A stretch of DNA of 63,278 nt, the filler included, from Sphacelaria rigidula (taxonomy: Eukaryota): the NCBI GenBank assembly GCA_964200075.2. It is 11 parts of 11 records of this genome, joined end to end, with 100 filler letters (N's around TTAATTAATTAA, not from the genome) between each part and the next. Parts side by side here need not be neighbours in the genome. Positions count along the whole stretch, not along the records: positions 5,764 to 11,425 come from CAXNAA020025460.1; positions 11,526 to 17,187 come from CAXNAA020025461.1; 9 more parts are not named here. The stretch is one strand, 5' to 3'. Both the position numbers and the translations under genes were made by a program. The notes under the pieces are model-generated. The model made no database searches. It was not told the origin of the DNA and was given only the letters and a program-made list of their open reading frames with translations. Below are positions 2,421 to 63,278 of this stretch, in pieces; position 1 is the stretch's first letter; each line of letters opens with the position of its first letter.

Positions 2421-5400
2421 AAGACCTGCAGCTAACTCGAGTCGGGATGTCTGTCAAACTCCGAGTAAAAGAGAGAGCAGCTGTCTAAGAAGCTGTCTAA
2501 TTACCTTGGTGCATTACACCGCTAATCGTGTACACAAATATTAAGTGAAAACAAGACTGAAAATAAAAGGTTTTTGCGAGAAAACCTTGAGCTGGTGTTT
2601 GGCTGTGTGTAAGCAGCGGTCGATCGAGGAAGAAAAACCGTACACAGCTTGAATGAAACAAGCTACCTCTGAAGCCAAACACAATGTGGCGGTACAGGCA
2701 ATGCCGCTAGCAGTAAAGCCGTATACGCCGAACGCAAGCAAGCCACACCCTTGTGAGGTGCCGGCCAGCGGTCCTGGATCGACTTGCTACACTCAAAACT
2801 GCCGTTTCAATCTCTCAATTCAATAGCCCAGCTGTCAAAGGGGAAACCCACACAGCCCCGGAGCCAGAATACAATATAAATCGTGGATGAGGGTAGAAGT
2901 ACAGCACAACAAGAGACTCACGTCAACTGCTGTGGCTCGCGACCGTGGGGGCAGAGAGATCGAAGGTGGTAGATGATGGTTAAAAAGCTCTTCTTTATCC
3001 AATAGGTGCTTGGAGGCCGGTTGATGTGTCGAGTGAACAGGTGGGTAGAGCAGCTGTTCTATCGATACGTCCGTCTGCCCCGCTTACAACCTTGTCATAA
3101 TACAAAATCACCGTGACGTGCTCTGCCTTTAGCCAAACAACGCTGTAGTAGCAGCAGGTACACGCGGCTAGTCGGGTACAATCTATTTACGTTCAACCAG
3201 CGTCAACAATAAAAACAGTCCAAATCCTGCCTCGTCACAACACACATTCGACTAGAATCTTTCCATACCCGTCGGTCGTTTGTAGATCAATCGTAGTATT
3301 CCTGTACTGGTTTACTTGAGACCCTCAGTCATTTACCATCACATCAGCCCACCCTGGATCGTTTAAGTGCAGTCACTTTTCCGAAGGGACGAACTTGCAT
3401 CGAGCCACACCTCTCCCACGCCACAGAAAACAGAGACTCGATTTGAAGATCGATTCCTCTTTGGTACGGGGAACGGGAAGGGGCGATCAACACAAAAGAA
3501 ACAAAAGAATACAAACACAAGCACAAAGCAAAGAGAAAAAAAATCGAACCGATACAATGATTCGGTGTCCTCATGTTCCGTGAGTACTTTAGACGGGATC
3601 ATGGGAAACGAAAAATATATAAATGAATAAATAAATAAGACCCAAAATCAACAAAACCATATACCATGAAATGCCGTGTCTCCAGAATGTCGTACGCATT
3701 CCGGGATAGACACAGGGAATCAGAGACCAATCATTGAAACGATTATCCTACCCTGCCATAACTATATAATGAATACATAGTTCGCTCTTTTCCGAATGTC
3801 CGATTTGTTTTAGGTCATTGGTAGAAAAACAAGCAAGCCCGCCAAGGCATTATATCACTTTGATAACCAAGATCATGCTAATCACTCGTCCCAGTCAATT
3901 AGCAAAAGCAAACAACGTACAGCCGAGTTCGTCGCGGAAATGGTAGTTTCCCGCGAAAACCACACGTTGATGAAGGAAAAAAAATGATACGGACAAATGA
4001 ACCCGTTTGACGTGAGTTAATTGTCGGTACATGTTTGTGAGAACAACGACTTGCTTGGGACCTCTGGTTGATGATCCAGTCGTACAGCCTTTTTTTTCTT
4101 CTCACACGACGATACGAAAACAATTGACCGGTTTGTGAGGTCAGGTGTCCGTACACGTCAAAAGAAACGTGGTGGACAATACACAACCTTCGGGCCTACT
4201 ACGTAGTTCCGAGGCGGATCACCGAACACATTTCTGAACCACGACAGATACACAGGACAGAGAGGACAAACGCAGCCCACTCCTCACAGTATTTTTGCCC
4301 GTTCGGACTAAACCGAGACTGGCCCGAACACAAACTGGAGTAAAATCCACAGCCGGTCGTACCGTCATGTTATTTCGTCCAATAATCCCTGATGAAAACA
4401 AAACACCACCGACCAATTTCAGGGGCGGGTAATTGTACGCAAAAACTGGTAAAAGTGACAAAAAATAGCGAGTGGTGGACTCTGAGCCTGTAGGCTGTAC
4501 CAACGGTCGAATATCGACATGGCGGAACAGATAGTCCCGAAAGAGCGATCTACCTCATCATGATAGGTGATGGTCCTGTATGAGGAGGCGTTTGCAACCG
4601 ATCTTACCGCGGCTTCAATAACAATTCTTCAACCCGCTATGTACGACGCGGCCAGTGGTGGCCTCGTTGTAACTTACCCATCACCAAATCATAAATCATC
4701 GCGTCGCATTACCCGTGACCCTCCTATAAACGAGGTCTGTCACATGCGGCAGGACTCGGAAACAAACGTAGGCCAAGTGTTCTAGACTCGAGGGTCAGGA
4801 ACGTTGGAACACTCGTGGCGAAATTCCCGACATAGACGCAGAAACCAAAACCAAAATAAATACAAAACTAGGGGCACGCTAGGCAACAGCGAAAACGAAA
4901 GTCCGCAACATAGGGCAGAAAAACAACACGTGGCAACCGTCCTTGTAAACGGGGGCAGTTATCGTGTGGATGAAGCAAGCAGGGTCAAAACTTTCAGCCA
5001 AGAAGGTCAAAACATTTGAGGCAAACCCATGTCAATATAAAACTCAACGTGGTGCGCACACAAAAACGGGACACGTCATTGCCGATCCTGCAGGTGGAAG
5101 CGGTATGCGTGTACGGAGCGGTTGGGCAAGAGCGCAGTTATTCCAGACGGGGACGTCAGGTATATGCAGCGCTCGCTCCTAAAACTCTCAACCGAAAGGG
5201 CAAAAATAAAGAAAAATATCGACAATATGACACACAAAAAAGGACACGTCATGACCGGTCCCCAAAAGGGAGGCGGCACTCGCGTGCGAAGCGATTGAAC
5301 AAGAGCGCAAGTATTGTAGACGTGGGCGTAAGGTATTGCTAGCGCTTGCTCCGGAAACTCTTCCATCAGAACAAACAAATAAAAAATGAAGACCATGTAA

Positions 5401-10627: not shown

Positions 10628-10693
10628 CGTTCTCATGTGTTGCTTGCCTTAGTCGTTTGACCATTGACCACGCATCCCTTTCGAGACGGAGCA
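10628..10693 (-). mobile_element. C-tract retroposon, 67-nt form A
   Basis: Matches consensus GTGCTCCGTCTCGAAAGGGATGCGTGGTCAATGGTCAAACGACTAAGGCAAGCAACAAATGAGTACG. Flanked by an imperfect ~21-23-bp direct repeat CCGT(C)AGAGGGGTAG(A/G)TGGGGG. Confidence 0.88.
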
Positions 10694-11542
10694 CCGTAGA
10701 GGGGTAGGTGGGGGCAACAAGCTTACCGCTGCGGTTTCATGCGCGTTGCGCTTGTGTGTTCATGTGTGTAGCAGTTTTTTTCCGTGTCCCCACTTGGCCA
10801 TCGGGAATACAGGCGAAATTTGTGCAATGTGACGCACAAAATTCAAGACACCACCCGACCACACCACACGCGCACGACCCGTGCCTACACTACGCACATC
10901 CGCCAGCAAACAAGTTCGCCACGCCGTTCAGCTCCTCAGCAGCAGCTACTGTGTGTTCATCACAATCACTCAACTACTACCTTCGAGGGCGAAGCGCTGC
11001 TGGTCATGGTTCATACACGAACGAATATCCATGACGCGCGGCATGTACACGAGTAGCAGCGGCTTTCACTTAGGTCTTGTCTCTCCACCGAAAACGACCG
11101 TTATTCGAAAGCCTGGCCCGAGGCATCTGACCTAGTTACGGGCCCCGCCATCAAAAGGGGGGACCTCTTGCCTGCGGAGTTTCCCGGGGTTCTCTCGCAG
11201 GATTTACATCGGGATACAGTATACTTCTCTGTCCCATAAGTAAAGGTACCCAAATTTTTACGTGCCCTGAACGATGTCTGATCATTTTTTTTTTAATGAA
11301 CTCCACGGTGTTTTTTGGGCTAAGAAAATGTGTTAAAATTTGCAGCTCGTGCTTGAACCATGCCACCGAACGGCTGCAAAAAAAGTAGTCGGCCCAAAAA
11401 TGGCCGTTTTTTGCCCCAATCCAAGNNNNNNNNNNNNNNNNNNNNNNNNNNNNNNNNNNNNNNNNNNNNTTAATTAATTAANNNNNNNNNNNNNNNNNNN
11501 NNNNNNNNNNNNNNNNNNNNNNNNNCCCCCCGGATAGTCACT

Positions 11543-11609
11543 GTGCTCCGTCTCGAAAGGGATGCGTGGTCAATGGTCAAACGACTAAGGCAAGCAACAA
11601 ATGAGTACG
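11543..11609 (+). mobile_element. C-tract retroposon, 67-nt form A (consensus copy)
   Basis: Exact direct repeat CCCCCCGGATAGTCACT (at least 17 bp) at 11526-11542 and 11610-11626. Confidence 0.93.
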
Positions 11610-11823
11610 CCCCCCGGATAGTCACTTGATCTACCTCCAGCTACTCCCCATTCGCTGGACTATCATTGGCCAAGTTCACTCGACTGAGAGCAACAAACGA
11701 GACAATATCAATGCCCCAAACGGCATGAGTCGATTTTATCTGGCCGACAAGGCACCAAGTAATCTGTTGCTGAGAACAAGGCGTGTCAGCCTCTGAGAAT
11801 GTGAAATATCTTCACATTTGGCG

Positions 11824-16525: not shown

Positions 16526-16586
16526 CTTGGACGCCCGGCCCTGTAGTTGGACGCTTAGAGGGCATCTTTTTTTGGGGGGAGGGCGG

Positions 16587-17084
16587 TGTACCCGTGATCT
16601 TGCACGCAGTAGTCATATGACCACTGACCTCGCGTTCCTACAAAGGCGGGACGGAGCACGCCGGGCTCGCCGGGCCAGGCTCGCAATCAATCGCGAAGCG
16701 CGAAGCGCCGCGATGTGTTCAGCGAATCGCATGAAGGGTGAGTTGCATCCTGCGAATATTCTTCGGCCGTACTGACTATCTTGCATAGGGATGACAGCCT
16801 CCAATGAGCCGCTTCATTTTCTGGTATCGCCACTTCCAGAGACAGCCACGGGCTGCATGTCGCCTCATGGGTGTCTCGTCACCATGAAACACTACGTAGT
16901 ATGGTCACCCCCTTTGCGAGGAATTGACGTTCTCCCACCCCGCAAAATATGATCTAGCTCTACCATCATCATGGTCACCGAAAAAAGACCTCAAGCGCGC
17001 AGAAAAACCCGGCAGCCTTGTTGCCTAGCTTACACAGTGAGTGGCATGTTTTACAGCGTCGTTGACAACGGACGCCAACCTCAT
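16587..17084 (-). mobile_element. C-tract retroposon, full-length form B (~500 bp)
   Basis: Colinear with 56908-57436 from (A/G)GTTGGCGT...CAACGACGCTGTAAA to GCAAGATCAYGRGTAC. G-runs lie on both sides, and GGGGGAGGGCG is repeated at ~16575 and ~17097. Confidence 0.85.
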
Positions 17085-17130: not shown

Positions 17131-17187
17131 CGTACTCATTTGTTGCTTGCCTTAGTCGTGTGACCATTGACCACGCATCCCTTTCGA
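17131..17187 (-). mobile_element. C-tract retroposon form A (cut by contig end), stacked next to form B
   Basis: CGTACTCATTTGTTGCTTGCCTTAGTCGTGTGACCATTGACCACGCATCCCTTTCGA follows a G-run. Confidence 0.9.
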
Positions 17188-23049: not shown

Positions 23050-23227
23050 ACTTAGCAGTGACCACATCCGCATCTGAGCTGATATCTATCCTGATTACGG
23101 TCAATGGTCTGATGACTATGGCATGCATGATCATGAGTACACCCCCCGTAGGGTGTACATAGCCCCTGGTCGTTGACCGTAATCAGGATAGATATCAGCT
23201 CAGATGCGGATGTGGTCACTGCTAAGT
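23050..23227. repeat. Perfect 55-bp inverted repeat enclosing a form-B 3' fragment
   Basis: 23050-23104 is the exact reverse complement of 23173-23227. The B fragment GGTCAATGGTCTGATGACTATGGCATGCATGATCATGAGTACA lies at 23099-23141 and is followed by CCCCCC. Confidence 0.95.
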
Positions 23228-26295: not shown

Positions 26296-26712
26296 CACAT
26301 TTGTTCAAAGACTCTAAATATTGTATCGGGGGGCAGATATAGACAGGTTCAACATACTAGTGACCATCGCAGCACGGCGGCGCGTAGAAGCGAGCAGCCC
26401 GTGGGTCGGTACATGTACACGGGTGAAACATATCCCTCGAACATCTATCCCTCAAACTCAAATAGTTTTCAACCGGGACTTTTTTTTTTTTTGTGTGTGT
26501 GTGTGCTGTGCAGATGCAGACTAATTTCATCCGTCTGTAGATACTTGGAAGAGGAAAAAAAGGAAATGCCGAGACGAAGTTTATACTGGGTGTGGCACCT
26601 AATGGAACCGAAATTGGACCTTCTTCGGCAGTTGAAAGCTTGAGCAGACGCTTACTGCCCAACGTGGGTACAAATCTCAACACTTTGACTTCCAACCCCG
26701 TCCCCCCCTTCC

Positions 26713-26777
26713 GTCTCCGTCTCGAAAGGATGCGCGGCCGCTGGTCGAATGACAGAGGCAAGCATAAAATGAGTACG
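26713..26777 (+). mobile_element. C-tract retroposon form A (diverged copy)
   Basis: CTCCGTCTCGAAAGGATGCG...AAATGAGTACG, flanked by CCCCCCTTCC on both sides. Confidence 0.85.
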
Positions 26778-27031: not shown

Positions 27032-27330
27032 TAGTAGTGGGCGATCTAACTATTCATTGTTTGGCATCTTGTGATGTTTTCGTAATCGGCGATTTTCTTG
27101 GGCTCTTTTCGCTTGCCACCGTTTATCACATTGAGAACCTGAAGATGCTTGTTTTCTCTCCACATTCCAAGAAAAACTAATCATCTGTACTCAAGATTCA
27201 GTGACTTACGGGCTGACCGGTCATCGGGGGTCCTGCCACTTTTCAGCCCAGATTCTTACTCTTCGGTATTTTCGGTCGATCGAGCCTGTCCCGATCACAT
27301 TTATGAAGAAATGTACATTTTTTTTTTTTA
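27032..27330. mobile_element. Partial Tc1/mariner-type MITE, same family as 23410-23959
   Basis: Left TIR TAGTAGTGGGCGATCTAACTATT. 27200-27320 is reverse-complementary to 23670-23790. Confidence 0.75.
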
Positions 27331-27506
27331 ATTCCACCTACTCATTGCGAAACTGTACATGACATATTCTCAACCGCTCGATGATACGGTACCGCGCTGC
27401 TGCTGCTGCACGGTACAGACGAAATTGTTGCATCAGCGACCAGTTATAGCAAAAAATAGATAGTAGACCAATGTTGCCATAGCCCCCCCCCTCCTCCCCA
27501 GAGGTG

Positions 27507-27630
27507 AATGGTCTTCTGACTATGGCATGCATGATCATGAGTACACCCCAACTCCCCAGAGAAGTGCTCCGTCTCGAACGGGATGCGTGGTCAAAAGTCA
27601 CACGACTAAGACAAGCAACAAATGAGCACG
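27507..27630 (+). mobile_element. Stacked C-tract retroposons: B fragment (27507-27545) plus form A (27564-27630)
   Basis: The target CCCCAGAG(AA)GT is present three times, before, between and after the two inserts. Confidence 0.88.
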
Positions 27631-28911
27631 CCCCCCCCTCCCCCCCCCAGAGAAGTCGTTGCTTTAACGCTGTAGAACTCTACATTTAAATCAATATGAC
27701 AAAAGCCGACCATACCGAGCAGCTGGGAATCCCCACGCTTGGGATCGTTTTCGCCAATGTTGCCCACATGAGGCCCTTCAAGCAGGCTGGCACTAGCGAC
27801 CACGTGCTGTACAGTACAGCCATTTTCTTCGTGGCCATTTGGGGCTGGTTTGTAGGGGAGGAGAGAGCCATCGCGGCATCACACAGTGACAGTATGCACT
27901 GGTTCTATCTCTGCTAAGTGCTATGCAACAACAGTGCGCTGCTCTTCCCAACAGGAGGGGGGGTAGCTAGGTCGCAAAAGACGGCAGGGAGCAAAAAAAA
28001 ACATCCTCTCACTTGTTGTGCGTATGTCAACGGTTGGTGTTCAAAAGGTGAAAAACAGCTTCATCTCCAGGTGGCGAGATACTGAGCGATTTTATAGGGG
28101 AACTTGTCATAGCAGATCATGACACTGATCAGAGCTATGAAAAATGATCATCCCACGCCTCTTTACACCTGTCGCCCGACCTGCGAATAAAAATTTACTG
28201 GTAAAACGCATGATTGATCTGAGGAGCATTCGCTGATGACTCGGGGAAACCTGCACGCCTCCCCGCCAAGGAACATTGAAACCCCTCGATCGCCAGCCGG
28301 TGAAACCGATCCGAAACGAAGATCTAGGTCAAAAGGGCTATAACGGAACGTGATGGATAATGGAGAGTGTTGAGGACATTTCTTCCTTCTTCCTGTCATC
28401 ACGTACATACTACTCGGCCAGTGTATTTTATCGGGATTAAAATTGGTTTCAAAGTACTGTAGTATTTCTGGGATAGGGTATGTGTGTGTCGAGCGCCGCT
28501 TACTCGCCGAAGGAGCCTCTTTCTGCAGCAATAGCATCCCGATTTATTCCAGGGTGTAAGAAACCATGTTGCTCCTGGCCCGGACTCAAAGACTCAATCA
28601 GCCCGTACCTCTTTCGCTTCACCCCCCCCCCCCCCCCCCCACCCCCCCCTCCCCAAAGGTCAGGTGGCGAAAAGGCAAAAAACTAAGACAAACAACGAAA
28701 GGCACACCCCCNNNNNNNNNNNNNNNNNNNNNNNNNNNNNNNNNNNNNNNNNNNNTTAATTAATTAANNNNNNNNNNNNNNNNNNNNNNNNNNNNNNNNN
28801 NNNNNNNNNNNCACGCTCCTGAACTTTGTTCTACCGCATATTCCCCCCACCACCCGCACCTATACTACAAACAGGTGCCCCCCCCCCCCCCCCCCCCCCT
28901 CCCCCCTCTCT

Positions 28912-28975
28912 CTCCGTCTCGAGAGGGATGCGTGGTCAATGGTCAAACCACTAAGGCAAGCAACGAATGAGTACG
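28912..28975 (+). mobile_element. C-tract retroposon form A
   Basis: Consensus match between two C-runs (CCCCCCCCCTCCCC on both sides). Confidence 0.88.
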
Positions 28976-30903: not shown

Positions 30904-32384
30904 CTTCCACGTTAGAAACCGTTCCAATATCTGCGCAGTACTCTGTGCTGGGTATCTGATGCGGACGCCGTTCGTGATCACAGGCTAACTACCCCCAAAA
31001 CAGGGTAAACGTAATAGGAGAAGAGACGATAAGGGGATGGAACCTGATGCCCTGTGCATGAACCTTCAAACTGCACGTGTTTGGCGTGGAGACAGCACTC
31101 GTAACAACATGCTTACACCGGTGGACGTCTAGCCCCTCGCCACCCCTCACCAGCCTCCGCATGTCCGTTGTTCTTTGTTTCAGAGTTCTAGTTAACTCAT
31201 CTATGGCGACAGTCCGTTTTCCGCGCTGATGTACGCCATGTCTCCCATGACATGCCGCGATGTGCCTTGGTTTGTTTCGAAAACAGTTCGCGGACCACTT
31301 CCTCCACAGCAACACTAAGCCGGGTGGGATGCTGCATCTGGACCGATGGCAGAGGGGGTGAGTGACGTCGCGAGTTTAACGCGTTCTCTGCTGTTTGTCG
31401 TCGAGGCGGCGGCGATGCGATGTTTGCCCGCGAGGGGTCCTTCATGGTGTCTATTTTCCTCAGGGTGCTGTTCGCTCATTTGTCTGCAACCATTTGCCAA
31501 GGCACCCCCACCTATCCACGACCATATACCACGCCCCCCTAGCTTTCTTGGCCAACGACAACAAACAACACGGGGCCGTGCTTGCTTCCTTTTGTCTGAG
31601 GCAAGGAAGACCTTGCTTTCGATTTGTGCAACCACGAACCACCTCCTGTTCGGTCCTCTCTTGGCTGAAACCCTTTCTAGGGGAGGGAGTATAGACGAGC
31701 GGTGGCGACCGGTGTATGTGGAGGGGGTAAATGTGGCCGGGACCGCCGCGGCGGACAAAGGGTCCACCACCGACGCCAAGAAGGACATTCAAGTGGACGG
31801 CGATTCCTTTCGTGGCGCGTTCGACCCGGTGAGCACACGGCGACTACCTCCAAAGTCAGTAGAACCTAGGAGGGAAAACTTTGAGAAAAACAGCCCGAGT
31901 AATAGTACCGTACACCGGCCGTGAGGAGCAGCGGTGTCGTACATTGCTCGTAAGGGGCAACGGTCGGGAGGGCAGTGCGTTGTACTCCTATACTCTGTTG
32001 GATCCGTTCGTGCCGGCCGTCGTGGGAAGCTGGGTCGCGCTAGTAAGCCTACTGTTAACAGCGACGCTCAGGTGGTGAGCTAAGATAGAAGTCGCACCAA
32101 GCGGGGGGCTGTCGAGAATAGGAATGGTGTGCAGGGAACCGCGCAGCAGTCGTTTAGCTGCCAGTAGATATCGCGTGAATGTCTTTATGCCCTGTAGTCA
32201 ATCACCTGCAAATGTTTCGGTTTTATATTCAAGCTCTCCTCTTCCTGGAGATGAGGCTGCAGTCCTCGAGGAATCAACTCAGTCTTACGTACTGGTATCG
32301 CGGGATAGGATCGGCACTCCCGCACCATGTTGACTCTCGACACATGAACGCTTCAAGATTGTGCTCTGTGGGGTATACCCGGAA

Positions 32385-32478
32385 GTACTCATGATCTTGC
32401 ATGCCATAGTCAAATGACAATTGACGTCGCATCTCTACGAAGCCAGGACGGAGCACGCCGGGTTTTCGCCGGACCAGG
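32385..32478 (-). mobile_element. C-tract retroposon form B, 5'-truncated
   Basis: GTACTCATGATCTTGCATGCCATAGTC...GGACGGAGCACGCCGGGTTTTCGCCGGACCAGG matches the B 3' end. No clear TSD. Confidence 0.8.
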
Positions 32479-33195: not shown

Positions 33196-34691
33196 GTAAC
33201 TAATATCACGATTATTCTGATCTTTAGTTCTAGGTCGCTCACAGCGCAGCGGGGAAACTCGCCCCCCTCTCAGATCAGTACGTTAATCGTTACCTCTCTC
33301 CGCCCGCGCGCTCCACCACCGCCCGACTCCTCCTTGCACGAGGTCAGCGAAAAAAGTCTTTCCAACACATATCCGCTGCCGCCGTACCGAGTTTTTGCGT
33401 TGGAGTCAGGCTACCAGCGTGAAGCTACACGAGTCATTTTCGTGTGTGCTGTGAAAAGTAAAAAATGTCAGCCACACCCCTGCATAGCTGAAGAAACACG
33501 TCTCTCAGTAAACACCGGCAAACATGCAAAATCTCAGATTTTTCGTTTGATTGGTCCAGAACTTCCGGGAACTTCTGAACTTTCGCAGAAGTCATCAAGA
33601 CTCTATTTCACATGCCATGTCTCAGCTAAGGAAGAAATTCCAACACAGACACTCTGTCGTGGGACGGAGTTTTGGCGTTGGCGTTAGGCTGCCAGCGTAG
33701 AGCTACGTGATTGTGTTCATCCGTGTGTGCTTTGACAAGGCAAAAAACCACACCTGCGTACCTGAAAAAGTACGTTTTTCGTCTGAACAGACCACACTAT
33801 GAACTTCGAACTGCACCTGCGTACCTGAAAAAGTACGTTTTCCGTCTGAACAGCCCACAACAGAAACTTCAAACTGTCAAAACTTCAGACATAGTCGACC
33901 GTCACCAACCGGCATGGTCTACCACCCGTCAACGGCATCACTTCGGCGTGCTTATTGACCCACACGCCAGGGTCAATCTCCAGGAATTTGATTTTTTTCG
34001 CCAGTGCCTATCAGTTCAAGACTTCATATGTAGTGTTTTAAGTCAACGTTCCTACATGGCTTCTGATAAATTTTCTTCAAGTTGCAGCAAGCGTGAGGGC
34101 GTCAAGTTAGGGGTTCCTAAAGCCCCAAATTATACAGCGTGTGACTTTTTTGATACCAGTGGAATTTGAAATTATACAGCGTGTGACATTCCTCTCGTGT
34201 GTCTGCGTTCATTCCCTTTGGTCTGTTGTTTTTAGGTTTTCACTGCAGCAATATATTGTCTTTCCCTTGCTCAAAAAAGTAAATCAACCATCCAACCATC
34301 CATCCTCAAACAATCTTTAATTTAATTAATTAATAAAATACTTTTTATAACTATTTATCTTATTTAGCAGGGGTGTGTACGGAGGACAATTCGCTCCGCG
34401 GTGCGGATTGTCACGGTGCGGTTTGTCAATCCACACCGCTCCGTGGCATTTGTAGGGGGCGGATATCCGCACCNNNNNNNNNNNNNNNNNNNNNNNNNNN
34501 NNNNNNNNNNNNNNNNNTTAATTAATTAANNNNNNNNNNNNNNNNNNNNNNNNNNNNNNNNNNNNNNNNNNNNTCGGTTGGGGGGGGGGTGTGTTTTGTT
34601 AGGTGAAATTCTGTCTTCTAGACCGCGCCCCCCCCCCCCCCCCCCCCCCCCCCCCGAACCAGATTGAAAAACTGTCCCGATGGCCACACAT

Positions 34692-34753
34692 CGTCCCGGC
34701 TTTGTAGGGATGCGAGATCAATTACGACTACCACATGCATGATCATGAGTACA
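34692..34753 (+). mobile_element. C-tract retroposon form B, 3' fragment
   Basis: CGTCCCGGCTTTGTAGGGATGCGAG...GCATGATCATGAGTACA followed by a C-run. Confidence 0.85.
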
Positions 34754-37700
34754 CCCCCTCCCCCCCCTTTCTGTAAATGTTGTCAGGGGTTGGATGCTTT
34801 GTTTTGAGACGTTAGGCACACTGAAAAAACTCTAGCCCGCTTTCCCGTTTCGCTGCGCTCCGAGGTTTCGAGAACGATCTCTGACCACAAATCCGAATGG
34901 AAACGAAAGATGTAGAAATGAGTGGATATTTTGAAAATATCGCGACAGGTCATGGTTGTTCATGTGTAGGGGAGGGAGAGGGAGGGGTGGGGGGGCTATT
35001 CAGATGCCGTTCTTGAAACCTCGGAGCTAGGTGAATCAGAAAAAGTGGGCTCGACTCCCCCAAGAAGGTCGTGTACAATGTCTGGGACACATGGTAATAG
35101 ACCTGTCGTGTTTTGAAGGAAAAAACTGCCGAATGTCTTGAACCTGGAAAATCAATCGAATAAAGAGGCGATCCCGGTGAAACATGGTCTTGAAAACTAT
35201 CGTCAGATACCGAATGTGTTGGAGATGTTCGCCTTTATTTTTTGTCTCGAAAAGTCGCGGCTATAGTACTTTGAAGGCGGTCCGTAGGCTATCATATCCA
35301 CTATGACAGTATGGGTCGTCCTTGCATGCAACGCTTGGGTTTGGAGAATAAAAGCGAAGAGTAAGCACAATCTCCTCAACTTTTGGATCAGCTCTTTGTC
35401 ATGCTCATACGACGCCGTAATATTTTTTGCTCCATCAACAAAGCGCCCTGCCTCTCCTTCTGCCGCCTCTATACCGTCGACTTGCTCGCCTGTGCTGCAC
35501 AGATTTGACGAAATCCCTGAGGTCAACGCATGCGCGACGCCAGACCGATGCGAGATCATCGACCCTATCGAATTCGCTACGCACGGCGAGGACAGCGCTG
35601 CGGTCGGGGAGCGATTCTTCCAGAAGGCGAAGGATATGCTCAAGTCTTCCCTCACAAGGGCAGGCTAGATGAAAAGCAATCACCCACAGCCTGGTGAACA
35701 GGCTGGTGCCATCAATTTGATGAGTTTTTGCTTGGTGGAAAAGAGGCGAGTGAGAGCAGGGGGGGCGGAAGGGGCGATGATGCCTTGTGTCCCCCTCTTC
35801 CCTCTGTCGTCGCACTTCTTTTCCTACTCAAGTTTGGCGGGCCGTGGTGAAAGACGTTGGGGTTGAATTGGTTTCAACGATCCATCCACCCCCGGTCACA
35901 GCGCTGCCGCTGCTGCTACCGCTGTTGAGGGCGCCGGCGGTACCTAGCCATTGTAAGTGAAGGGTTGTGGCAATGCGGAGAGGGGCAAAAAGCGAGTGCT
36001 TAGAGCGGTGTATGATGACCGGCTGTATTCAGATGCCATGATGAAAAAAATAGGCGTTTTCCGTACGCGCTTCTTTGTCCGGTTGACCCTCGAAGTACCT
36101 GAAATGACGCGCTGGGGTTGACATACAGGCGCACGCTTAGTGTTTGGTGGGCGGGATTCTTCTCCGCATCTTTCCCCCCCCTCCTGTCGTCGCCCCCCAG
36201 TCTGGGCCGTCTTTTATTGCGTTTTCCCGACTCTACGGGGCGGAGCAGGTCGCGGAGCGTGTGTAATTTTTTGCGATTGCCGGTGCTGCGGTATCCGGAC
36301 AGAAATTATTAGAGGAGAGGCGCGGGTGCGTGTGTAATTGTAAGGGGCGGTGGTGTGTTCTGCTGCTTCCACTGCCCCAACACCTGTCGAACTCTGTACT
36401 ATGTGACTATATCTCTTTCTCCGAGGAGGGGGCGGGGGGAGGGAGGGGGGTAAAAGCTGTAGAGGAGATGAAGAGTTCGCTGAAGAAAAAGATTGCCCAT
36501 TGTTCAGGTTAACCCCAAACTGCATAGCGCATCTTGTCTTTCCCCCGGGTTTTGTTACTAAGCCCACGCCTTCCCTAGTTTTGGCTATCCATTTCAACCG
36601 GAAATGTTGGTGTGGTATGGGAGATGGCAAGCTTTTCCATTATATAAACAACGAATCGACGTTTCGCTAGGCGGGTCGAGGAGGCAGAAGGCCATGGCAT
36701 GTCCAGAGAAGCCCGTGTATGTGTGTGTTTCCAAATTGACGGGGTTACTCGCGTTCTGCTGATTCCTCCCTCGGTGGCGTGGTGCGCGTATCCGTGTACA
36801 TGCTGTATTTTGTATTTTGCCATTTGGTGAATCGGCCGACCTTGTCGGTGTGTAGACGAAAAATAAGCTGATTATTGTACATGGGTGTCATGACATGTGC
36901 TTTTATTCACCCAAGAATTTTGTTCTCGCTCGCCGAGGCCAAGGCGGGGCGGAGGAGGTGGGTTCAGCGTGGTGGGTAGTTGTCGGGCCGAAGACGTGGG
37001 CGTGTAGTGCCACAGAGAGGTGCTTTGAACATGTAGAGGTTTGTTGAGGTAATCAGGACCAATCCAACACCGTCAATCGCGCTGGTGTTATTCGTACAGT
37101 GAAGACATGTGGCATCGCTCTTTCAACACCTGAATAACGGTACCCTGTGGAGCTCGTTGGAAGTGTTCATGTCAGGGTCGGCAAGATGAATGCCGTTCAG
37201 GTATTATATTTTGGGAGGTGTTGGTTGTGCGCAAACTCGCGGTCTGATGCCAGACCATGGGCAGCTATGCCGTCATCATCGCATCCACGATCAGTTTCAA
37301 TATTTGCCCAACATAAAACAATGATACCGTATCCATGTGGTGGCAACCCCTGGGCACGAGAAGATTGACATGAACAGTTTTTATTACCCAAGGACGAAGT
37401 CCGAAAGTCGGCAATCAATCACCATTCCGCTACTTCACCAATCCTTTGGGTGGGGGCAGATGCCTGAGTCCGACCTCTCGACTATCCATTCAACAAAGGC
37501 ATGATCACAGTACCTGCGCGAGAGAACCATTCTAATAAATTTCATAATCTAGGTTTACCATCAAGCCACAGCCTTGCAGCACCTGAAAATTGGAACCCCC
37601 ATACGAGCTGGGACAGCCTCGAAACGGACTTGAGCTATCATCGACACAGAAAAAATGGGCCGTGAAACGCACATCTCAAAAGCCTAGGCCAACTTGTCCT

Positions 37701-37765
37701 TGTTCATTGGATGCCATGTCCAGTAACTCCTGTACCGTACGTCAACAGGGCTAAAAGTGGGAACA

Positions 37766-38237
37766 GATCATCGTCGAGATTGAGGGTGGAGCTTTTCATC
37801 CAGGATGACGTGGAAAATTAAAAATTTCGCAGCCACGCCATTTCTTCGAAATATTGTTCCATTCCATCTTCTGGGAGCTTTTAACAACTGCTACACGCCA
37901 TGAAAAATTGGATTCCGATGACCGAATTTGGGGGTCCTGGGAGAAGAAAATGTTGAGAGTGTAAATGATGCGGCGGAAATGTTGGGATTTTACAATAGAT
38001 GATCCGACCTGATCATCTGCGGGATCATCTAAACTCCTCAAAAATGTTTTTCATCCAGGACCCCCGAATTTCAAAAACTGGAATCCAAATTTCCATGACG
38101 TGTGGCAGTTGTTAGTAGCTACCAGGAGATGAGGAAGAAATGGAACAATATTTCGAAGAAGTGGCGTCGATTCGAAAACTATTTTTTTCCGGGTCATCAT
38201 CCTCAATGACAAACTCCATCCTCAAGTTCGATGATCG
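37766..38237. mobile_element. Foldback / long-TIR element (~470 bp)
   Basis: ~37766-37950 is a diverged reverse complement of ~38050-38237 (e.g. TTCTTCGAAATATTGTTCCATT / AATGGAACAATATTTCGAAGAA). Confidence 0.8.
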
Positions 38238-38940
38238 GGTGTTTGGAGACTATATGAAACCCCGTAAAATATGCACAGCAGATGATGACAATTTTTTATG
38301 AGAGTATTCCCTGTCCATGGAGCACACGGGGGAACGATTGGATCACTCCCCTTCACCTGATTCGCAACCTGTCTGGAGGTATTCCGCACAAACATGAGAT
38401 TCCACGCTATAACCTCGAGATATTACCAACAGAGGCACTAAATGCACTAAAACTGGATTTTGCGTGTCAGTTTTGAGAGGTGCGCTTTGAAATTTTGTAC
38501 GTAAGATTGCTAGGGCATAACGAGGAAGGAAACGTCCAGCTCCTTCAGTTATTTCTCGGAGGGGGAGGGGGGGTTCACGTCTTGGGGGGGGTTTAGTGAA
38601 AGATGAACATTGTTTTTGGCCTTTTATTTCTGTTTCTCAGCTTAATTTTTAGAATTGTGATTTGAAATCGAGTATGCAGAACCGGAATCATGCTGATGGC
38701 AAAAAGAAAGTGTTCCTTTCTTTGTTGGTGAGTCAAGGAAGTTCTCATTAGAAAAAATGCATTATTGCTATTTTGAAACGTCCTCAACTCATAGAAAAAA
38801 GGACTAGGAAAATAAGTGTGTCCCATCTTTTCCCATCACGCCCCCTAGCGATTTCCAACACAAAGTTCAAAGCACAAGATAGTACCGAAACTGGGCTGGT
38901 AAATGATCTGCAAAATGCTGGTCCGAATTCCGAACGGCCC

Positions 38941-39345
38941 CACACGCGGCCTTTCGGTTACCCCCATAAACATCCTCTCTCACGATTTTCATCCTCTCGG
39001 AGGTGAAGTGATCCTCTGGAGGATAAAATTACCCTCTAGAGGGTATTTCATACTCAGTTCCGGTCATAAAACGAATCCTCTGCGAGAACATCTGATTCTC
39101 CAGTGACTTCTGAGGTCTGAATCCCTCGAGAGTAACAAAAAAAAATGGTGCTCTGAATGGCTGCGCATTCTACGAGTTCCTCCAGAGGGTGCGCGGGCCC
39201 TCCAGAGGCAAAACAAAGCTCCAGAGGCGTTCGATCCCACCTTTCTGGAGGGCTGCGCACCATCTAGAGGCGTTTAATTTCTCTTTAGGCTCGAAAAGTT
39301 GACCGGAACAGAGTATTTGGGGGGGTAGCCGAATGGCCGTGTGTG
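38941..39345. mobile_element. CMC (CACTA/Mirage-like) MITE with CTCCAGAGG sub-repeats
   Basis: TIR CACACGCGGCCTTTCGGTTACCCCC / GGGGGTAGCCGAATGGCCGTGTGTG, 2-bp TSD CC. Confidence 0.8.
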
Positions 39346-40032
39346 CCGGGTTCTAAATAACCCATTCTCACCTCAATTTTAATAGTTGGCCTCTCAAATT
39401 TGATGCGTGGAGAATGGATAGGGCGGCATATACATACAAATATCTTGGGACGTGAAGTTTTTTTCTCTTTTCATGACTCACCAGGGGGCTACGGGGAAAC
39501 GATTTCGTGACGCGTAGGCCCCAAAATGGAAAAATATAGTTTTGAGGGGGTGGGGTGGGGGGCAGCCTGCTGTCCCCTAGTTTATTGCTTGCCGAGGCGT
39601 CGGCGGATGCGGTCAGCTGCCGTGTACAGAGATCCTTAGCATGGAGACCGCTGAGATGACGGACATGCCGCCCTCCCCAAGCTCATATCACTTACCATGA
39701 ATACATATATGGGACCATGCTCCGTGTTGTGTGCCTTGAGTTCCCACCAGTGATCCGGGCAAGTTTGGCGAGGCGTGAGATATCGTTGCTACGTGAAGTT
39801 CAGGCTGTCACTCCCGCGCGATCGTGTACATACATGGGTGTGAGCGTGGCCGGCATCTGAGGTCATCGAGACAGAGCGCGCAACGCGCAGAAGCAAATAT
39901 ACGAACCCCGCACGGCCCACCAGACTCTTCGGTTTTGGTCAGTGCTTCTTGATCAGTTCCTTGCAACAATATTCAACAACAAAAAGTCATGACAACTTTC
40001 GAAAAATTGGCCTCCGGGAGGGGGGGGGAGGG

Positions 40033-40098
40033 CGTACTCATTTGTTGCTTGCCTTAGTCGTTTGACCATTGACCACGCATCCCTTTCGAGACGGAGCA
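40033..40098 (-). mobile_element. C-tract retroposon form A
   Basis: Consensus match, with GGGAGGG immediately on both sides. Confidence 0.9.
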
Positions 40099-41380
40099 GG
40101 GAGGGAAGCTCCGTGTCCGAATATCTTCTCTCTGCCGTGACCCCCTGGACTCACGGACATCCTACTGAAAACTGGGTCTTGATTTTTGCTCCCAACTCAT
40201 CATGACCATCATAGTGGACGTGTTTGGCGCCTTTNNNNNNNNNNNNNNNNNNNNNNNNNNNNNNNNNNNNNNNNNNNNTTAATTAATTAANNNNNNNNNN
40301 NNNNNNNNNNNNNNNNNNNNNNNNNNNNNNNNNNGCTGTCCAAAATAAATTCGTTTTCGCTCGACTCAAATCGGGTGAAGAGGAATTTACCTCGGACAGG
40401 AGGACAAGGTATTGAAGATATTTACAGATTTTGTACCAAAACATTTGGAATTTTCGAAAAAAAACACTTGAGGTTTTTTCACCAAAACACTACCACATGA
40501 CTGTGCAGGGCTTTGCCGACGTGCCTACACAGGGCTGCAAATCCAACCCTGGGGAAAACCCTATAAAAACGCTGCCACGGGTAGAGATTTTGCATTTCAC
40601 TGTCAGGGCTTTTTCACAAAGACTGTGGAGGACCCTGTACGGACCCTGCACAGTGCGCCCCACAGGGTGCTATCTGTCCACGTGTGTAGAAATGAGGATG
40701 AAACAAGGATACAGGTGAACGAAATTCAACAATATGAATGCAACAAAAAAAGAGATGACTATAAAAAAAAACTAGAGTGAAGAAAAAATATATAATAAAA
40801 AATGAGTAAAACAAAGAAAGAGTAGAAAGGAAGGTATGACAGGGCTGTTAACTGCACCAGCTTATACCTGTACTGTCGATCAAACTGGGACTACACTTAT
40901 ACCGGAACTGGCGACGAGAGTGTTCATCATGAGTTCCTTCCGTCATTACTGATTTACACAAGTAGCTGATTAGATGCGAGTTATGGCTCTTCTTCAGCAA
41001 GTTTTTTCCAAGATTCCCGCAGGGGGTGGTCTTGGTCGGGGATCGTCTCCAACCCCAGCCACCGTCAGATGAAGTCGAGCCAGCCAACGCACAGCAGCAC
41101 GCATGTGTTCCCGAAAAGTACGAGTCGTGAGTACTTGGTGCGTGTTTGAGGGTTAACGTGCAGTAGAAGGGAAACGTAAACCGTTTTTTTTTCGACCCTC
41201 CGGGGGGGTAGGAGGGGTGGTACATAGGTGTGCGGGATAATATGGTTTCTCGTGTGCTAGATCAATGGGTTTTTCTAAGAGTGTCAGCAAGGGTCTGCCG
41301 TGATAAATTATTGTGCAACTCTATTCGGGACAAAAATACTCCTCGATTAGACTGGAAACTGGTCGTTGTCGGGGCAATCA

Positions 41381-46999: not shown

Positions 47000-49612
47000 A
47001 TAGCACGGCAGCACGTGATCGAGACGTTCCCACACAACCTCGGGGAGCGAGCATACCAGCCACCCACCACCACACCGGCGGCCGCGAAGGAGTTCACCGA
47101 AGCTATCCCCGAAGTAGCACAGAGAGTACTCCCGGCGAAGACACGGATAACACGTATGCCGGAATGGTATGATGAAAGTCCCGATACGAGAGCAATAGTA
47201 GAGGCAGCGCTTGTGCACCAACGGGAGCCACGACGGTTGATGAAGGACAACCGGACCCCAGCAACGTCGAAAGCCCTCAGAGCCGCGTGTGTAAAGGACT
47301 ACGTACTGCGATACACGACGGCGTCCATGCACACCTGGAGAGATACGTGGCGAGGCTACAAGCCACCTACAAGGATCGCGACATGCGAGACCTGTACAAA
47401 CACCTCAAGAGGCCGGTAGGTCTTGACAGAAGGCAATCAGAGGGGCAGCAGTTCATCAAGGACGAGAACAGTGCTCTACTGAGGAACGACATCGAGATCC
47501 TGAAGCGGTGGGCGATCTTTTTCCGAATCGTGCTCAGCACCAAATCGCCCACGCTGAACCCAGCCATCATCGAGGAGGTGAAGCAGTAGCCGACAGCATT
47601 ACCCACCGGAGATTCGTTACCGCTTGGGTCAGCACCAACGCTGGAGGAGACCACACGAGCAGTCCGTGGGATGCAAAACTGGAAAGCGTCGGGGCCCGAC
47701 TCTCTCCCTGAAGAACTACTCAAGATCGACGGCCGAGTCGAATCTATCGTTATCGAACGCTCCCGTGCCATCCTCGTCGAGGTGTGGAACGGAGGTAAGG
47801 TCCCGCAGGAATGGAAAGACGCTACGATAACAGTACTGTGCAAGGAATCGGACCTTTTCAACTGTAACAACTACCTGGGATTCTCACTGGTGTCGCACGC
47901 AGGGAAAGTGCTCTCGAAGATAGTGGCCAACCACCTCAGCGACTACTACGAAGCACACGGGATACTGCCGGAGCAACAGTGAGGCTTCCGACCTGATCGA
48001 TCCACCACCGACATGTTGTTCGTAGTGCGCCGGCTTTAGGAACTGAGACAACGATGGAGAATACCACTATACATGTGCTTCGTCGACCTCCAAATGCCCT
48101 ATAATTCGGTCGACCGAGAGCTCCTATAACAGGTGCTTGCCCGATATGGTATTCCGGACGAGATGATAGCACTTATCCGCCAATTCCACGATGGCATGCC
48201 GGCCCGCGTGCGCATGGACGACGGGGAGCTTTCGGAGTGGTTCGAGGTCACTCAGGGACTACGGCAAGGGTGTATGCCGTCTCCGCTGCTCTTCGATATA
48301 TTTTTCACTGCGGCGCTCGAGATGGCTCTCGTGCGATTCAGCGAGGACAACATCATCCTCAAGGATATGGTAAATGTCGACGAGGAGACGGTGGGGGAGA
48401 CGGAGATGCCTCTGGAACGTGTGTAATGCGCGGGAGGACCGCGTGCTGAGGGGACCGCATCGGAATTTAAAGATCCCTGTGGTTAGGGTTAGGGCTCGGG
48501 TTAGTGGTGGGTTAGGGTCAGGGGCATGGTCCCTGCAGGTACTGGCCCGGTTGGCTTCGAAAAGCGTCGATCCGGAGGTGTTTTGAACTATGATGTGGTA
48601 CCCTACGCAGGCGGTCCTCCCACGCAATACAATGCGTACGGAGAGCGGTGTGGAGAATGCTATACTGTATGCCGATGACGCGACCGTCGTCTCGAGGTCC
48701 CCTGACGGCCTGGCGAGGATGATGACGGTTATAGTACGCGTGTTTGGGGCCTACGGACTGACGGTGTCGGAAAAGAAGACAGAGAATCTACTGATGCGAG
48801 TACCGCAAAAATCGCTACAGGAGGTGGAGCCACCATCACCACCTGCCCCACCACTAGTCATCGAAACAGCGGGCAAGAAGTACGCATTAACCACGACGTT
48901 CCGATATTTTGGTGGGCTCGTCAACAAAGATGGCGAGCCCACACAAGCGATCAATAACCGGAGTAGAGCCGCGTGAGCGTGCGTCAGAAGGGTTTCCCGG
49001 GAGATCTTTGACCGACCGAAAGCACCGTAGAGACTCAAGGCCCGCCTGCTGAAGGCAGAGGCGATGGAGGCCCTACTATACGGATGCATGATGTGGGCCC
49101 CGCGCCGCAAGCACTACAGGTTGCTGAGGATGGTACACTACCGACTCCTGCTGCGAGTTATCGGGTACCGTCGAGTGCGTGGCACATACCGACATTTACC
49201 GTATGCCCAGGCCTTGAAGAAGACCGGATGCCAAAGTGCTGAAGCCATCGTCCGGCAACGGTGACTGCTGTTTGCGGGAGCCCCAGCTAGACAACCGGAC
49301 GGACGACCAGCGAAGCGACTGGTATTCGGGCCACTTGTGGTGGGGGAGGGTTCAGGACCAGGGTACCCGGAGCAAAACTGGCTGAAGTGCCGGGGGGACG
49401 ATTTTCAAGCTTTTGGAGCCACGAACGGCTCTACGGACGACAGCCGACAGACACTCGGACTTGAGAATACCCTCTGGCCTTCAGCAGCGAAGAAGGAAGG
49501 GGGGATACTATGGCACGCGGGGGTGCTGCAGGGAGCAGAGAGACTCATGACCTCTTGGCACAAAAACGAGGAAAAGGCCAGCCGACTACGGGCGATTAAA
49601 CGGAAGCTTTGA
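47000..49612 (+). pseudogene. Decayed non-LTR retrotransposon (RTE-like LINE) reverse transcriptase
   Basis: RT motifs in order: [50 protein letters not shown]...[43 protein letters not shown]. Multiple in-frame stops and frameshifts. Confidence 0.93.
48423..48630. mobile_element. 208-bp MITE with internal TTAGGG repeats, inserted in the LINE RT
   Basis: TIR GTAATGCGCGGGAGGACCGC / GCGGTCCTCCCACGCAATAC. 7-bp TSD AACGTGT / AATGCGT. Removal restores LERVRRAVW. Confidence 0.85.
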
Positions 49613-56639: not shown

Positions 56640-56886
56640 TCGTGAAATAAATAAACTCGTTCGAGGCTGTCATCCATATGCATGAAAGTTGGTATGCTTA
56701 CGGCCGAACAATCTTGGTGAAATGCAACCCACCCTTCATGTGACTCGCCGGACACATCACGGTGCTTGCGCTTGTTGACTGCGAGCCTGGTCCGGCGAAA
56801 ACCCGGTGTGCTCCGCTCCGGCTTTGTAGGGATGCAAGGTTGATGATCTCATGACTTTGACTACTGAATGCAAGATCATGAGTACA
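56640..56886 (+). mobile_element. C-tract retroposon form B, 5'-truncated (~250 bp)
   Basis: Aligns to the 3' half of 56908-57436 and ends in GATCATGAGTACA+CCCCCC. The 5' boundary is approximate. Confidence 0.85.
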
Positions 56887-56907: not shown

Positions 56908-57436
56908 CCCTTTCAAAAGTTGGCGTTGGTCGTCAACAACGCTGTAAACACGGCACTCACTGCGCATGCAAGGGGACTACGTTGCCGTTTCTTTTTCTCG
57001 TTTGTATTTTTTTGCGGTATCCACGATGGTAGTCGAGTTGGATCATTTTGTGTGTGGTGAAAAAATTCCATTCCGCGCAAAGGGGATGATCATACTACGT
57101 TGTGTTTCAATGGTGAGACACCCATGAGGCAGTGAGGCAGTGCTATGGCATGATCATGAGTACACATGAGGCAGTGTAAGCCGTGGCTGTCTCTGGACGT
57201 GGCGATAGCAGAAAATGAAGACACTCATTGTAGACTGTCTTCCATATGCAAGATGCTTGGTACGCTTCGGGCCCGACAATCTTAGCAGGATGTAGCTCAC
57301 CCTGCGAGTCGCGGAATACATGACGGCGCTTCGCACTTGGTGATGGATTGCGAGCCTGGTCGGGCGTGCTCCGTCCCGGCTTTATAGGGATGCGAGGTCA
57401 ACGATCTAAGACCACGGCGTGCAAGATCATGAGTAC
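56908..57436 (+). mobile_element. C-tract retroposon, full-length form B, with a nested 22-nt B 3' end
   Basis: Colinear with 16587-17084 (reverse). Extra CTATGGCATGATCATGAGTACA at 57143-57164, flanked by CATGAGGCAGTG. Confidence 0.87.
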
Positions 57437-57455
57437 CCCCCCCCCCTCCCCCTGC

Positions 57456-57517
57456 TGCTCCGTCTCGAAAGGGATGCGTGGTCAATGGTCAAATGACTAA
57501 GGCAAGCAACAAATGAG
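57456..57517 (+). mobile_element. C-tract retroposon form A (cut by contig end)
   Basis: TGCTCCGTCTCGAAAGGGATGCG...AACAAATGAG directly after the C-run that ends form B. Confidence 0.9.
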
Positions 57518-63019: not shown

Positions 63020-63278
63020 GTATATGTTCGGGGGAGGTGGTTCTTGTTTCTTGGAAATATGAAAATATCCGTCGACGGTGTGAGTTTACTTGTGTGCGTC
63101 GAGGGCGGACTTGGTTTTGAGATTAGCAATCTTCCACGATTCAGACGAATCATTGCCGGCTCGAATCACCAAATCCACGACTTTTTCAGGCCTGATTGTT
63201 CGAAAGAGAAAAAAAAAAGTCCACCGATGGTCGGAAAGGTTCCCACGTAACATTTGCGCCATTCCGTGTGCCTGGGCT

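Follow-up and report, generated by a model that had tools for sequence, protein, structure and literature searches.

The window analysed here, a stretch of 63,278 nt of DNA from the brown alga Sphacelaria rigidula, carries eight near-identical copies of a 67-nt repeat. Most likely, with a probability that we put at roughly 80%, each 67-mer is the retroposed 3′-terminal module of an autonomous (C)n-tailed LINE of the RTE type, which would encode an APE endonuclease and a reverse transcriptase (RT) in a single ORF and would belong most likely to the RTE-X group. With this reading, the repeat acquires both a parent and a mechanism. It also corrects the initial annotation, in which the repeat was taken for a tail-less element moving by a new mechanism.

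The 67-nt repeat and its parent LINE

The window consists of 11 pieces of about 5662 nt each, joined by spacers of the form N44-TTAATTAATTAA-N44. Each piece is a complete small contig from a draft assembly of a brown alga, and the piece ends are thus real contig ends. Comparison of the 67-mer with the window by blastn-short returned eight matches, 83–100% identical and spread over six pieces, in agreement with the eight copies in six contigs listed by the initial annotation; a 24-nt core of the 67-mer had six matches in the window versus none in 100 shuffles. The reference copy (11543–11609, plus strand), found with blastn-short and scoring 99.8 bits in cmsearch, is identical at 66 of 67 positions to the LINE ends of the loci L001 and L057 described below. 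The copy at 40033–40099 (minus strand; blastn) is identical over 66/66 positions, with a C at position 1. Two further copies, at 10628–10694 (minus strand) and 27564–27630 (plus strand, 92% identical), were characterised by blastn-short and flank comparison, while those at 28909–28975 (plus strand, 95%, in a long C-rich tract) and 26712–26777 (plus strand, 83%, an old copy scoring 51.4 bits) were recovered by blastn-short and cmsearch. The same two programs located the copies at 57455–57517 (plus strand), which lies within the C tail of an N-type element (see below), and at 17131–17187 (minus strand), from which the 5′ 10 nt are absent. Downstream of the latter, after about 45 C-rich nt, there is another N-type element. 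Contig ends cut both of these copies, and the reference copy is preceded by just its 17-nt repeat at the start of its piece. Altogether, the 67-nt copies make up approximately 0.84% of the window, and three of its contig ends fall in them, so that the repeat evidently breaks the assembly.

The contact of three of the eight copies with contig ends could also be taken as the mark of an assembly or library artefact, such as an adapter or chimeric contig ends. We give this explanation practically no weight: contig ends in repeats are the usual outcome of short-read assembly, and the other five copies are internal with unique flanks. Furthermore, the copies differ by up to 17%, and contigs of independent collections show the same sequence at the end of a LINE ORF, two facts that exclude the library adapter considered in the initial annotation.

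The LINE was found by scanning metagenome contigs with a 26-nt core of the 67-mer, which gave three loci, and prokaryote genome contigs with a 20-nt core, which gave 53. The 67-mer is preceded by unrelated sequence and ends a long ORF at each of the three metagenome loci, and the same holds for a single genome-contig locus out of 53 (L041). The remaining 52 genome-contig matches represent a bacterial ispG/gcpE motif and were rejected; a scan of viral contigs gave no match, and G001 had no further 67-mer copy. The LINE ORF reads ...GAPSRKGCVVNGQMTKASNK, stop, GTACG and then C8–C13, the stop being the TGA inside AAATGAGTACG, 5 nt before the end of the 67-mer. The 67-mer is made up of the last 20 codons of this ORF, the stop and GTACG. 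Hence, the earlier statement that the repeat has no ORF is true of a lone copy, but the same letters are the in-frame end of the LINE ORF.

When 2421 candidate proteins were compared with the C-terminal 251 aa of the L001 frame, six longer proteins matched, and RVT_1 is present in five of these six. P0003 (1360 aa) contains Exo_endo_phos at residues 170–392 and RVT_1 at 740–989, and P0004 (1328 aa) has the same two domains at 142–383 and 710–959, respectively, while P0005 is a chimeric gene model of Ectocarpus sp. CCAP 1310/34. L057, the contig behind L041, has an unbroken frame of 1382 aa that is 88% identical to P0003 and ends in the 67-mer plus C13. The last 20 aa are common to the four retrieved LINE proteins with at most three changes; in the alignment of the four, all but three of these 20 final columns (17 of 20) show no variation, which makes this stretch the joint best 20-column window of the last 300 residues. 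A C-run follows all four LINE ends. This position, at the end of EN-RT ORFs and in front of C8–C13, identifies the 67-mer as the 3′ end of a non-LTR retrotransposon that is autonomous, encodes EN and RT in one ORF, has hardly any 3′ UTR and ends in a (C)n tail.

The search for an RT-encoding element with the same 3′ end, proposed in the initial annotation, has thus yielded a LINE, and the origin of the repeat through target-primed reverse transcription (TPRT), proposed at the same time, is upheld by the fact that the whole sequence is the 3′ end of an EN+RT element. As expected of a LINE-dependent retroposon, the 67-mer has its 3′ end in common with a single-ORF LINE encoding APE and RT, and target-site duplications (TSDs) of variable length accompany three of the six complete copies. 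The C-run tail, which matches the first TSD bases, and the very short 3′ UTR likewise agree with the RTE type, for which a short homopolymer or microsatellite tail is characteristic. The LINE is most likely an RTE-type element of the RTE-X group as curated in Ectocarpus, an assignment that draws on domain order and on likeness to the published description rather than on a tree.

The LINE contigs with a full ORF come from other samples than the window. Contigs from four sequencing runs that contain the organism's DNA (X1, X3, X4, and X5) were compared with the window contig 34574–40234 only. Precisely where the copy at 40033 has its 5′ end, contigs belonging to other copies leave the reference: at position 40098 there are 689, 540, 695, and 217 loose ends in the four runs, and a further 134, 103, and 123 at 40096. 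Contigs also diverge just past the 3′ end (40016–40030), where the loose letters are G-runs, that is, C-runs on the element strand. The consensus of the 5′ loose ends has an agreement of 0.44–0.55 over the four runs (0.48–0.55 in X3 and X5). In X3 and X5, it is the reverse complement of the L001 sequence just before the module, differing at a single one of 30 letters, while in X1 and X4 just the first 10–13 letters match this upstream sequence. This match, from a consensus of at most 30 nt with an agreement of about 0.5, suggests that longer LINE-type copies may also be present in the organism of the window. In addition, joints "going back 77" occur in 13, 8, 9, and 1 contigs of the four runs and represent head-to-tail dimers with a short C-rich spacer. 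The depth summed over the element is 1.4–2.4 million, against about 27 in single-copy parts (X1), a figure that is not a copy number. In none of the four runs does a contig bridge 40033–40099 with 31 letters on either side, as the contigs stop at the repeat; no empty site is seen at 40033 in these runs, and the case for mobility therefore relies on the TSDs and on the parent LINE.

Flanks, target duplications and N-type relatives

Each of the seven 3′ ends that can be read is GAG[T/C/A]ACG plus a C-run, the seven readable 5′ ends are all located within module positions 1–4, and the seven readable left flanks all consist of C-tracts, in accordance with the near-constant ends and the C-run right after the 3′ end described previously. 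The exact flanking repeats of the six complete copies measure 17, 6, 10 (about 20/22 if imperfect), 8, 10, and 9 nt. As a control, the left flank of one copy was paired with the right flank of another (30 pairs). These cross-copy repeats range from 0 to 15 nt and reach at least 8 nt in 5 of the 30 pairs, because the flanks are C-rich. Beyond chance are only the duplications of complex sequence, which accompany three of the six complete copies, namely 11543 (17 nt), 27564 (CCCCAGAGAA, 10 nt), and 10628 (imperfect, about 20–22 nt). The duplications of the other three consist of C and T only, are no longer than the cross-copy controls and are ambiguous; one of these three is the copy at 40033, whose exact repeat is just CCCTCC. 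Thus, the direct repeats of variable length previously ascribed to every complete copy are unambiguous in half of them, and in the other half do not rise above the control.

Flank comparison places the left copy of the 17-nt duplication, CCCCCCGGATAGTCACT, at the contig start (11526–11542, plus strand) and its right copy at 11610–11626 (plus strand), where the C6 is inseparable from the C tail. At 27564, on the other hand, about 14 C-rich bases separate the copy from its duplication. Therefore, the 67-nt element has a C tail, as does the parent LINE with its C8–C13, and the description "tail-less" has to be abandoned. The sequence CCCCAGAG occurs three times around 27503–27654, which indicates one target used repeatedly; the target of the copy at 27564 was used earlier by a truncated N-type copy.

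The features of the ends also bear on an origin unrelated to the LINE, namely as a classical SINE transcribed from a Pol III promoter of its own, or as a MITE-like DNA element. The repeat is short, abundant and non-autonomous, and in RNA form its 6-nt ends, GTGCTC and GAGTAC, can pair with each other, one of the pairs being G-U, so that the earlier remark "no TIRs" needs this qualification. However, six imperfectly complementary nucleotides, TSDs of 6 to about 22 nt, unfit for a transposase, and a C-run confined to the 3′ side of the element do not match a cut-and-paste transposon, and we rejected this candidate. The classical SINE was likewise rejected since there is no Pol III head: neither a tRNA nor a 7SL or 5S head was detected in the window by ARAGORN (0 genes) and Rfam (0 matches at the gathering score), and the entire 67 nt are LINE ORF sequence. 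Taken together, this origin is extremely improbable.

Seven further elements of the window, here called N-type, end in ...GCATGATCATGAGTACA plus a C-run and are about 42 to about 550 nt long. The element at 56919–57437 (plus strand, approximately 520–550 nt) is a non-autonomous relative whose last 72 nt (57366–57437; 35 bits) show homology to the 67-nt module, with a C-run behind them. It is preceded head to tail by a second copy, whose 3′ module lies at 56808–56886 (plus strand; 11.8 bits, E 0.31), the two ends (56886 and 57437) being 551 nt apart. The element at 16574–17079 (minus strand), with its module at 16587–16659 (30.2 bits), is about 70% identical to 56919–57437 over 553 aligned nt. 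The remaining four are 5′-truncated: a copy of about 95 nt with its 3′ module at 32384–32456 (minus strand; 38.7 bits); one of about 66 nt at 34692–34754 (plus strand), with the C-run after GAGTACA; one of about 46 nt at 23099–23142 (plus strand; sequence comparison and cmsearch); and one of about 42 nt at 27503–27546 (plus strand; sequence comparison), flanked by CCCCAGAG. The full module, 72–79 nt long and homologous to the 67-mer, is present in four of the seven elements, and the homology between N-type elements and 67-mer begins at GTGCTCC, i.e., at module position 1.

These observations can be accommodated in a scheme drawn from the established TPRT model and from the rule that in RTE elements the first base of the TSD is correlated with the tail repeat (Nishiyama and Ohshima 2018, PMC6007223). 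The LINE protein would bind the 67-nt module, and its endonuclease would nick the bottom strand at a G-run; the G-ending 3′-OH would anneal to the C tail of the RNA and prime cDNA synthesis through the module. A staggered nick of the top strand would then generate a duplication whose length varies but whose first bases are always the C-run. In this process the C tail would merge with the C-run of the target, so that the element looks tail-less. Moreover, every insertion would re-create C-runs on both sides, and in this way sites could be re-used and head-to-tail arrays could grow. The uniform 5′ end would correspond to the 5′ border of the module, which may pair with the 3′ end (GUGCUC/GAGUAC). 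The idea of a C-ending RNA primed on a G-run, put forward in the initial annotation as the C/G analogue of a known process, fits all flanks and is supported; yet it is not new, because (C)n-tailed RTE-X LINEs and their non-autonomous partners have already been curated in Ectocarpus (PMC12477816, supplementary file 1).

A module-only class with a constant 5′ end

When P0003 and P0004 were compared with the window by tblastn, just their last 16–22 aa were matched, at seven of the eight copies. The sole other match is an unrelated RT fragment at 47638–48309, about 30% identical, and the 62 kb contain no LINE body of the same family detectable with these two proteins. Pfam, applied to 20 of the 76 window ORFs of at least 120 aa, found no family. 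Eight copies that consist of the module alone, seven readable 5′ ends confined to a span of 4 nt and the lack of any longer LINE fragment are not the outcome one would expect of random 5′ truncation. Severe 5′ truncation is frequent in non-LTR elements, and just seven ends could be observed, so one might suppose that ordinary LINE insertions were cut at random and that 67 nt is a sampling accident of a small window. Nevertheless, all seven ends coincide within 4 nt, and the scatter expected of random truncation is displayed by the N-type family in the same window, where the truncated copies are about 95, 66, 46, and 42 nt long. We consider such an accident very improbable.

The 67-mer begins where the homology between LINE and N-type elements starts, and this point is also the foot of a predicted terminal stem. 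In the minimum free energy (MFE) fold, this stem (GUGCUC/GAGUAC) meets two hairpins, one with a GAAA loop and one in the centre, in a three-way junction. The MFE of –19 kcal/mol is no better than that of shuffled sequences (z = –0.87; 40 of 200 shuffles fold equally well). A covariance model built from nine sequences found 18 matches; in the model-fitted alignment, 94.3% of the cells pair, and four pairs changed on both sides were counted, as compared with 0.8 in shuffles. All four, however, come from one spurious AT-rich match at 27310–27360, and we rejected them as covariation; the real members have only one-sided changes that preserve pairing. In the N-type elements, a 9-nt loop takes the place of the GAAA loop while the stem arms are conserved. 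The predicted structure is compatible with these data.

Two explanations for the constant border deserve to be weighed. It is possible, although we would not bet on it, that the 67-mers are dead-on-arrival LINE copies. In this case, the RT would start on the full-length LINE mRNA and jump to the top strand of the target at the 5′ border of the module, and the 67-mers themselves would never serve as templates. The 66/67 identity between 67-mer and LINE ends fits this proposal, as does the fact that no promoter, tRNA-like head or Rfam family was found; the way in which the N-type elements arose likewise implies that templates were switched at module position 1. On the other hand, by the time the RT arrives at position 1, it would already have copied the opposite strand of the terminal stem, leaving no obvious structural block, and N-type copies with the same module are cut at scattered points and not at the border. 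Also, position 40 is a C in six of the eight window copies but a T, within a Met codon, in all four LINE DNAs and, correspondingly, in all four LINE proteins. The C at position 40 hints that the 67-mers may form a lineage of their own, though the LINE contigs are from other samples; given this difference between copies and LINEs, the copies need not derive from exactly these LINEs.

The other explanation is that the template was a discrete RNA of about 67 nt plus a C tail, copied to its end; this is the one that we favour, at about even odds. A more specific and more doubtful version of it, to which we attach slightly less credence than to dead-on-arrival copies, is that the 67-nt module represents a naturally occurring minimal unit of retrotransposition: a discrete small RNA with a terminal stem and a G plus C-run end, akin to a 3′ "genomic tag", that would be released from the LINE mRNA or from a host transcript carrying the module and copied end to end by the RTE-X enzyme. 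Neither ARAGORN nor Rfam detected a promoter or processing signal for a 67-nt RNA. A tRNA-like small RNA of the mascRNA type was considered and rejected: the idea is without support given that ARAGORN predicts no gene, an Rfam search of L057 (E ≤ 10) gave no match at the 3′ end and just an unrelated weak Ocean-VII match inside the ORF, and the MFE fold is a three-way junction.

Comparison with known elements and implications

The closest described counterparts are found in Ectocarpus. According to supplementary file 1 of Dinatale et al. 2025 (PMC12477816), RTEX-1_Ec32 and RTEX-2_Ec32 have a single EN-RT ORF, are 5.5–5.9 kb long and are annotated with "(C)n 3′" and a "C-rich" TSD. The parent LINE is like them in having a single EN-RT ORF, a (C)n tail, a C-rich TSD and a brown-algal host, a likeness of description and not of sequence; unlike them, it has been found with reference to a host of another brown-algal order, the Sphacelariales. 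At the protein level, Ectocarpus P0005 ends in the same 20-aa C-terminus with three changes, but over the last 251 aa it is just 67% identical to the ORF of L001.

The same file lists two non-autonomous families with C-rich TSDs that have only about 60–100 bp of their 3′ end in common with the LINE, RTEX-N1_Ec32 (607 bp, tandem possible, "60 bp 3′ end 83% RTEX-1_Ec32/RTEX-2_Ec32") and RTEX-N2_Ec32 (188 bp) (PMC12477816). The N-type elements of the window, with their length of about 550 nt and their tandem arrangement at 56.8–57.4 kb, resemble RTEX-N1_Ec32, again by description and not by sequence. The 67-mer differs from both families in that it lacks a foreign 5′ part: it is the module alone, and it is LINE coding sequence. 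RTEX-N1_Ec32 is the most abundant Ectocarpus family, with 2.48 Mb (PMC12477816), and Sower, with 1.2% or about 2.5 Mb, has been described as the commonest repeat of Ectocarpus (PMC3145265). Judging from these matching abundance figures, Sower may be the RTEX-N1_Ec32 family, which would make it the N-type partner and not the 67-mer. A further Ectocarpus family, family148, has 1845 copies with a mean of about 96 bp (PMC12477816).

The 67-mer also resembles RTE-mobilised SINEs such as the Au-like SINEs, which have their 3′ end in common with an RTE-clade LINE and whose first TSD base correlates with the tail repeat; unlike these elements, which exceed 100 nt, have tRNA-type heads and insert at T-stretches, it is headless and has a C-run both as tail and as target (PMC6007223). 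A limited search of the literature and of the supplements of PMC12477816 yielded no description of a module-only 67-nt class, and the passages of the Phaeoexplorer preprint consulted make no mention of this element. What is new here, when set against the Ectocarpus families by their descriptions, is the species, a 67-nt class made of the module alone, and the coding nature of that module. With regard to recognition by the enzyme, Kajikawa and Okada reportedly described in 2002, for UnaL2 and UnaSINE1, a "stringent" recognition of a 3′ stem-loop by the LINE RT. By analogy with this pair, the 67-mer may be a short conserved 3′ module that suffices for recognition by the RT, the difference being that its predicted stems are without covariation support.

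The 67 nt, which are also the last 20 codons of the LINE, seem to be a minimal LINE cis-element and provide a hypothesis for the part of the RNA that the enzyme recognises. In the scheme proposed above, the copies re-create their own target, which would account for the tandem arrays. Moreover, a repeat abundant enough to end contigs matters for the assembly and masking of brown-alga genomes. SINEs are generally about 100–600 nt long. If the module is indeed a natural minimal retrotransposition unit, it would to our knowledge be shorter than every other SINE-like retroposon; all of its sequence would at the same time serve its LINE as conserved C-terminal coding region, and it would seed both tandem arrays and N-type composites by end-to-end template jumps.

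Contig ends and a re-used target

The 67-nt module, the 3′ end of a C-tailed RTE-type LINE, lies at three contig ends in the window. The third contig carries a copy at each end (contig ends 11526 and 17187), the two in opposite orientations, and the tenth contig terminates in a further copy at 57517. The short-read assembly is broken here by the repeat and its C-runs. At 27490-27654 the same target was hit twice: CCCCAGAG(AA) is present three times, namely to the left of a 42-nt truncated copy of the N-type (the non-autonomous relatives with a homologous 3′ module), between this copy and the 67-mer, and to the right of the 67-mer.

Other sequences in the window

A fragment of a different reverse transcriptase is found at 47638-48309 (+). 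Compared with P0003 and P0004, two proteins of the parent LINE family, it is 30-32% identical in the RT domain; this fragment has no link to the 67-mer. The region 37600-39900 holds several other high-copy repeats, where the summed contig depth, which is not a copy number, reaches 10^3-10^5 vs ~27 in single-copy parts. Finally, a GC-rich open frame of 491 aa occupies 61587-63059 (+). No family was detected for it by a Pfam search, and it has 13 more distant relatives besides a protein named from Sphacelaria rigidula, to which it is 99% identical over a match covering 36% of the query.

Resemblances to the module

On the LINE-bearing contig L057, an inverted stretch within the LINE 5′ flank (~4740-4790, on the reverse strand of the LINE) opens with the first 12 nt of the module and has further blocks in common with it; this stretch is absent from the cmsearch matches at E up to 1. 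Module positions 17-36 (11559-11578 in the window) form a 20-nt core which is letter-identical to codons within the conserved bacterial ispG/gcpE motif MGCVVNGPGE, and the two share their reading frame (GCVVNG). This motif accounts for 52 of the 53 matches to the core in prokaryote genome contigs, GcpE being confirmed by Pfam for the one locus checked among the 52. We take the identity between the repeat core and the ispG/gcpE codons as a coincidence.
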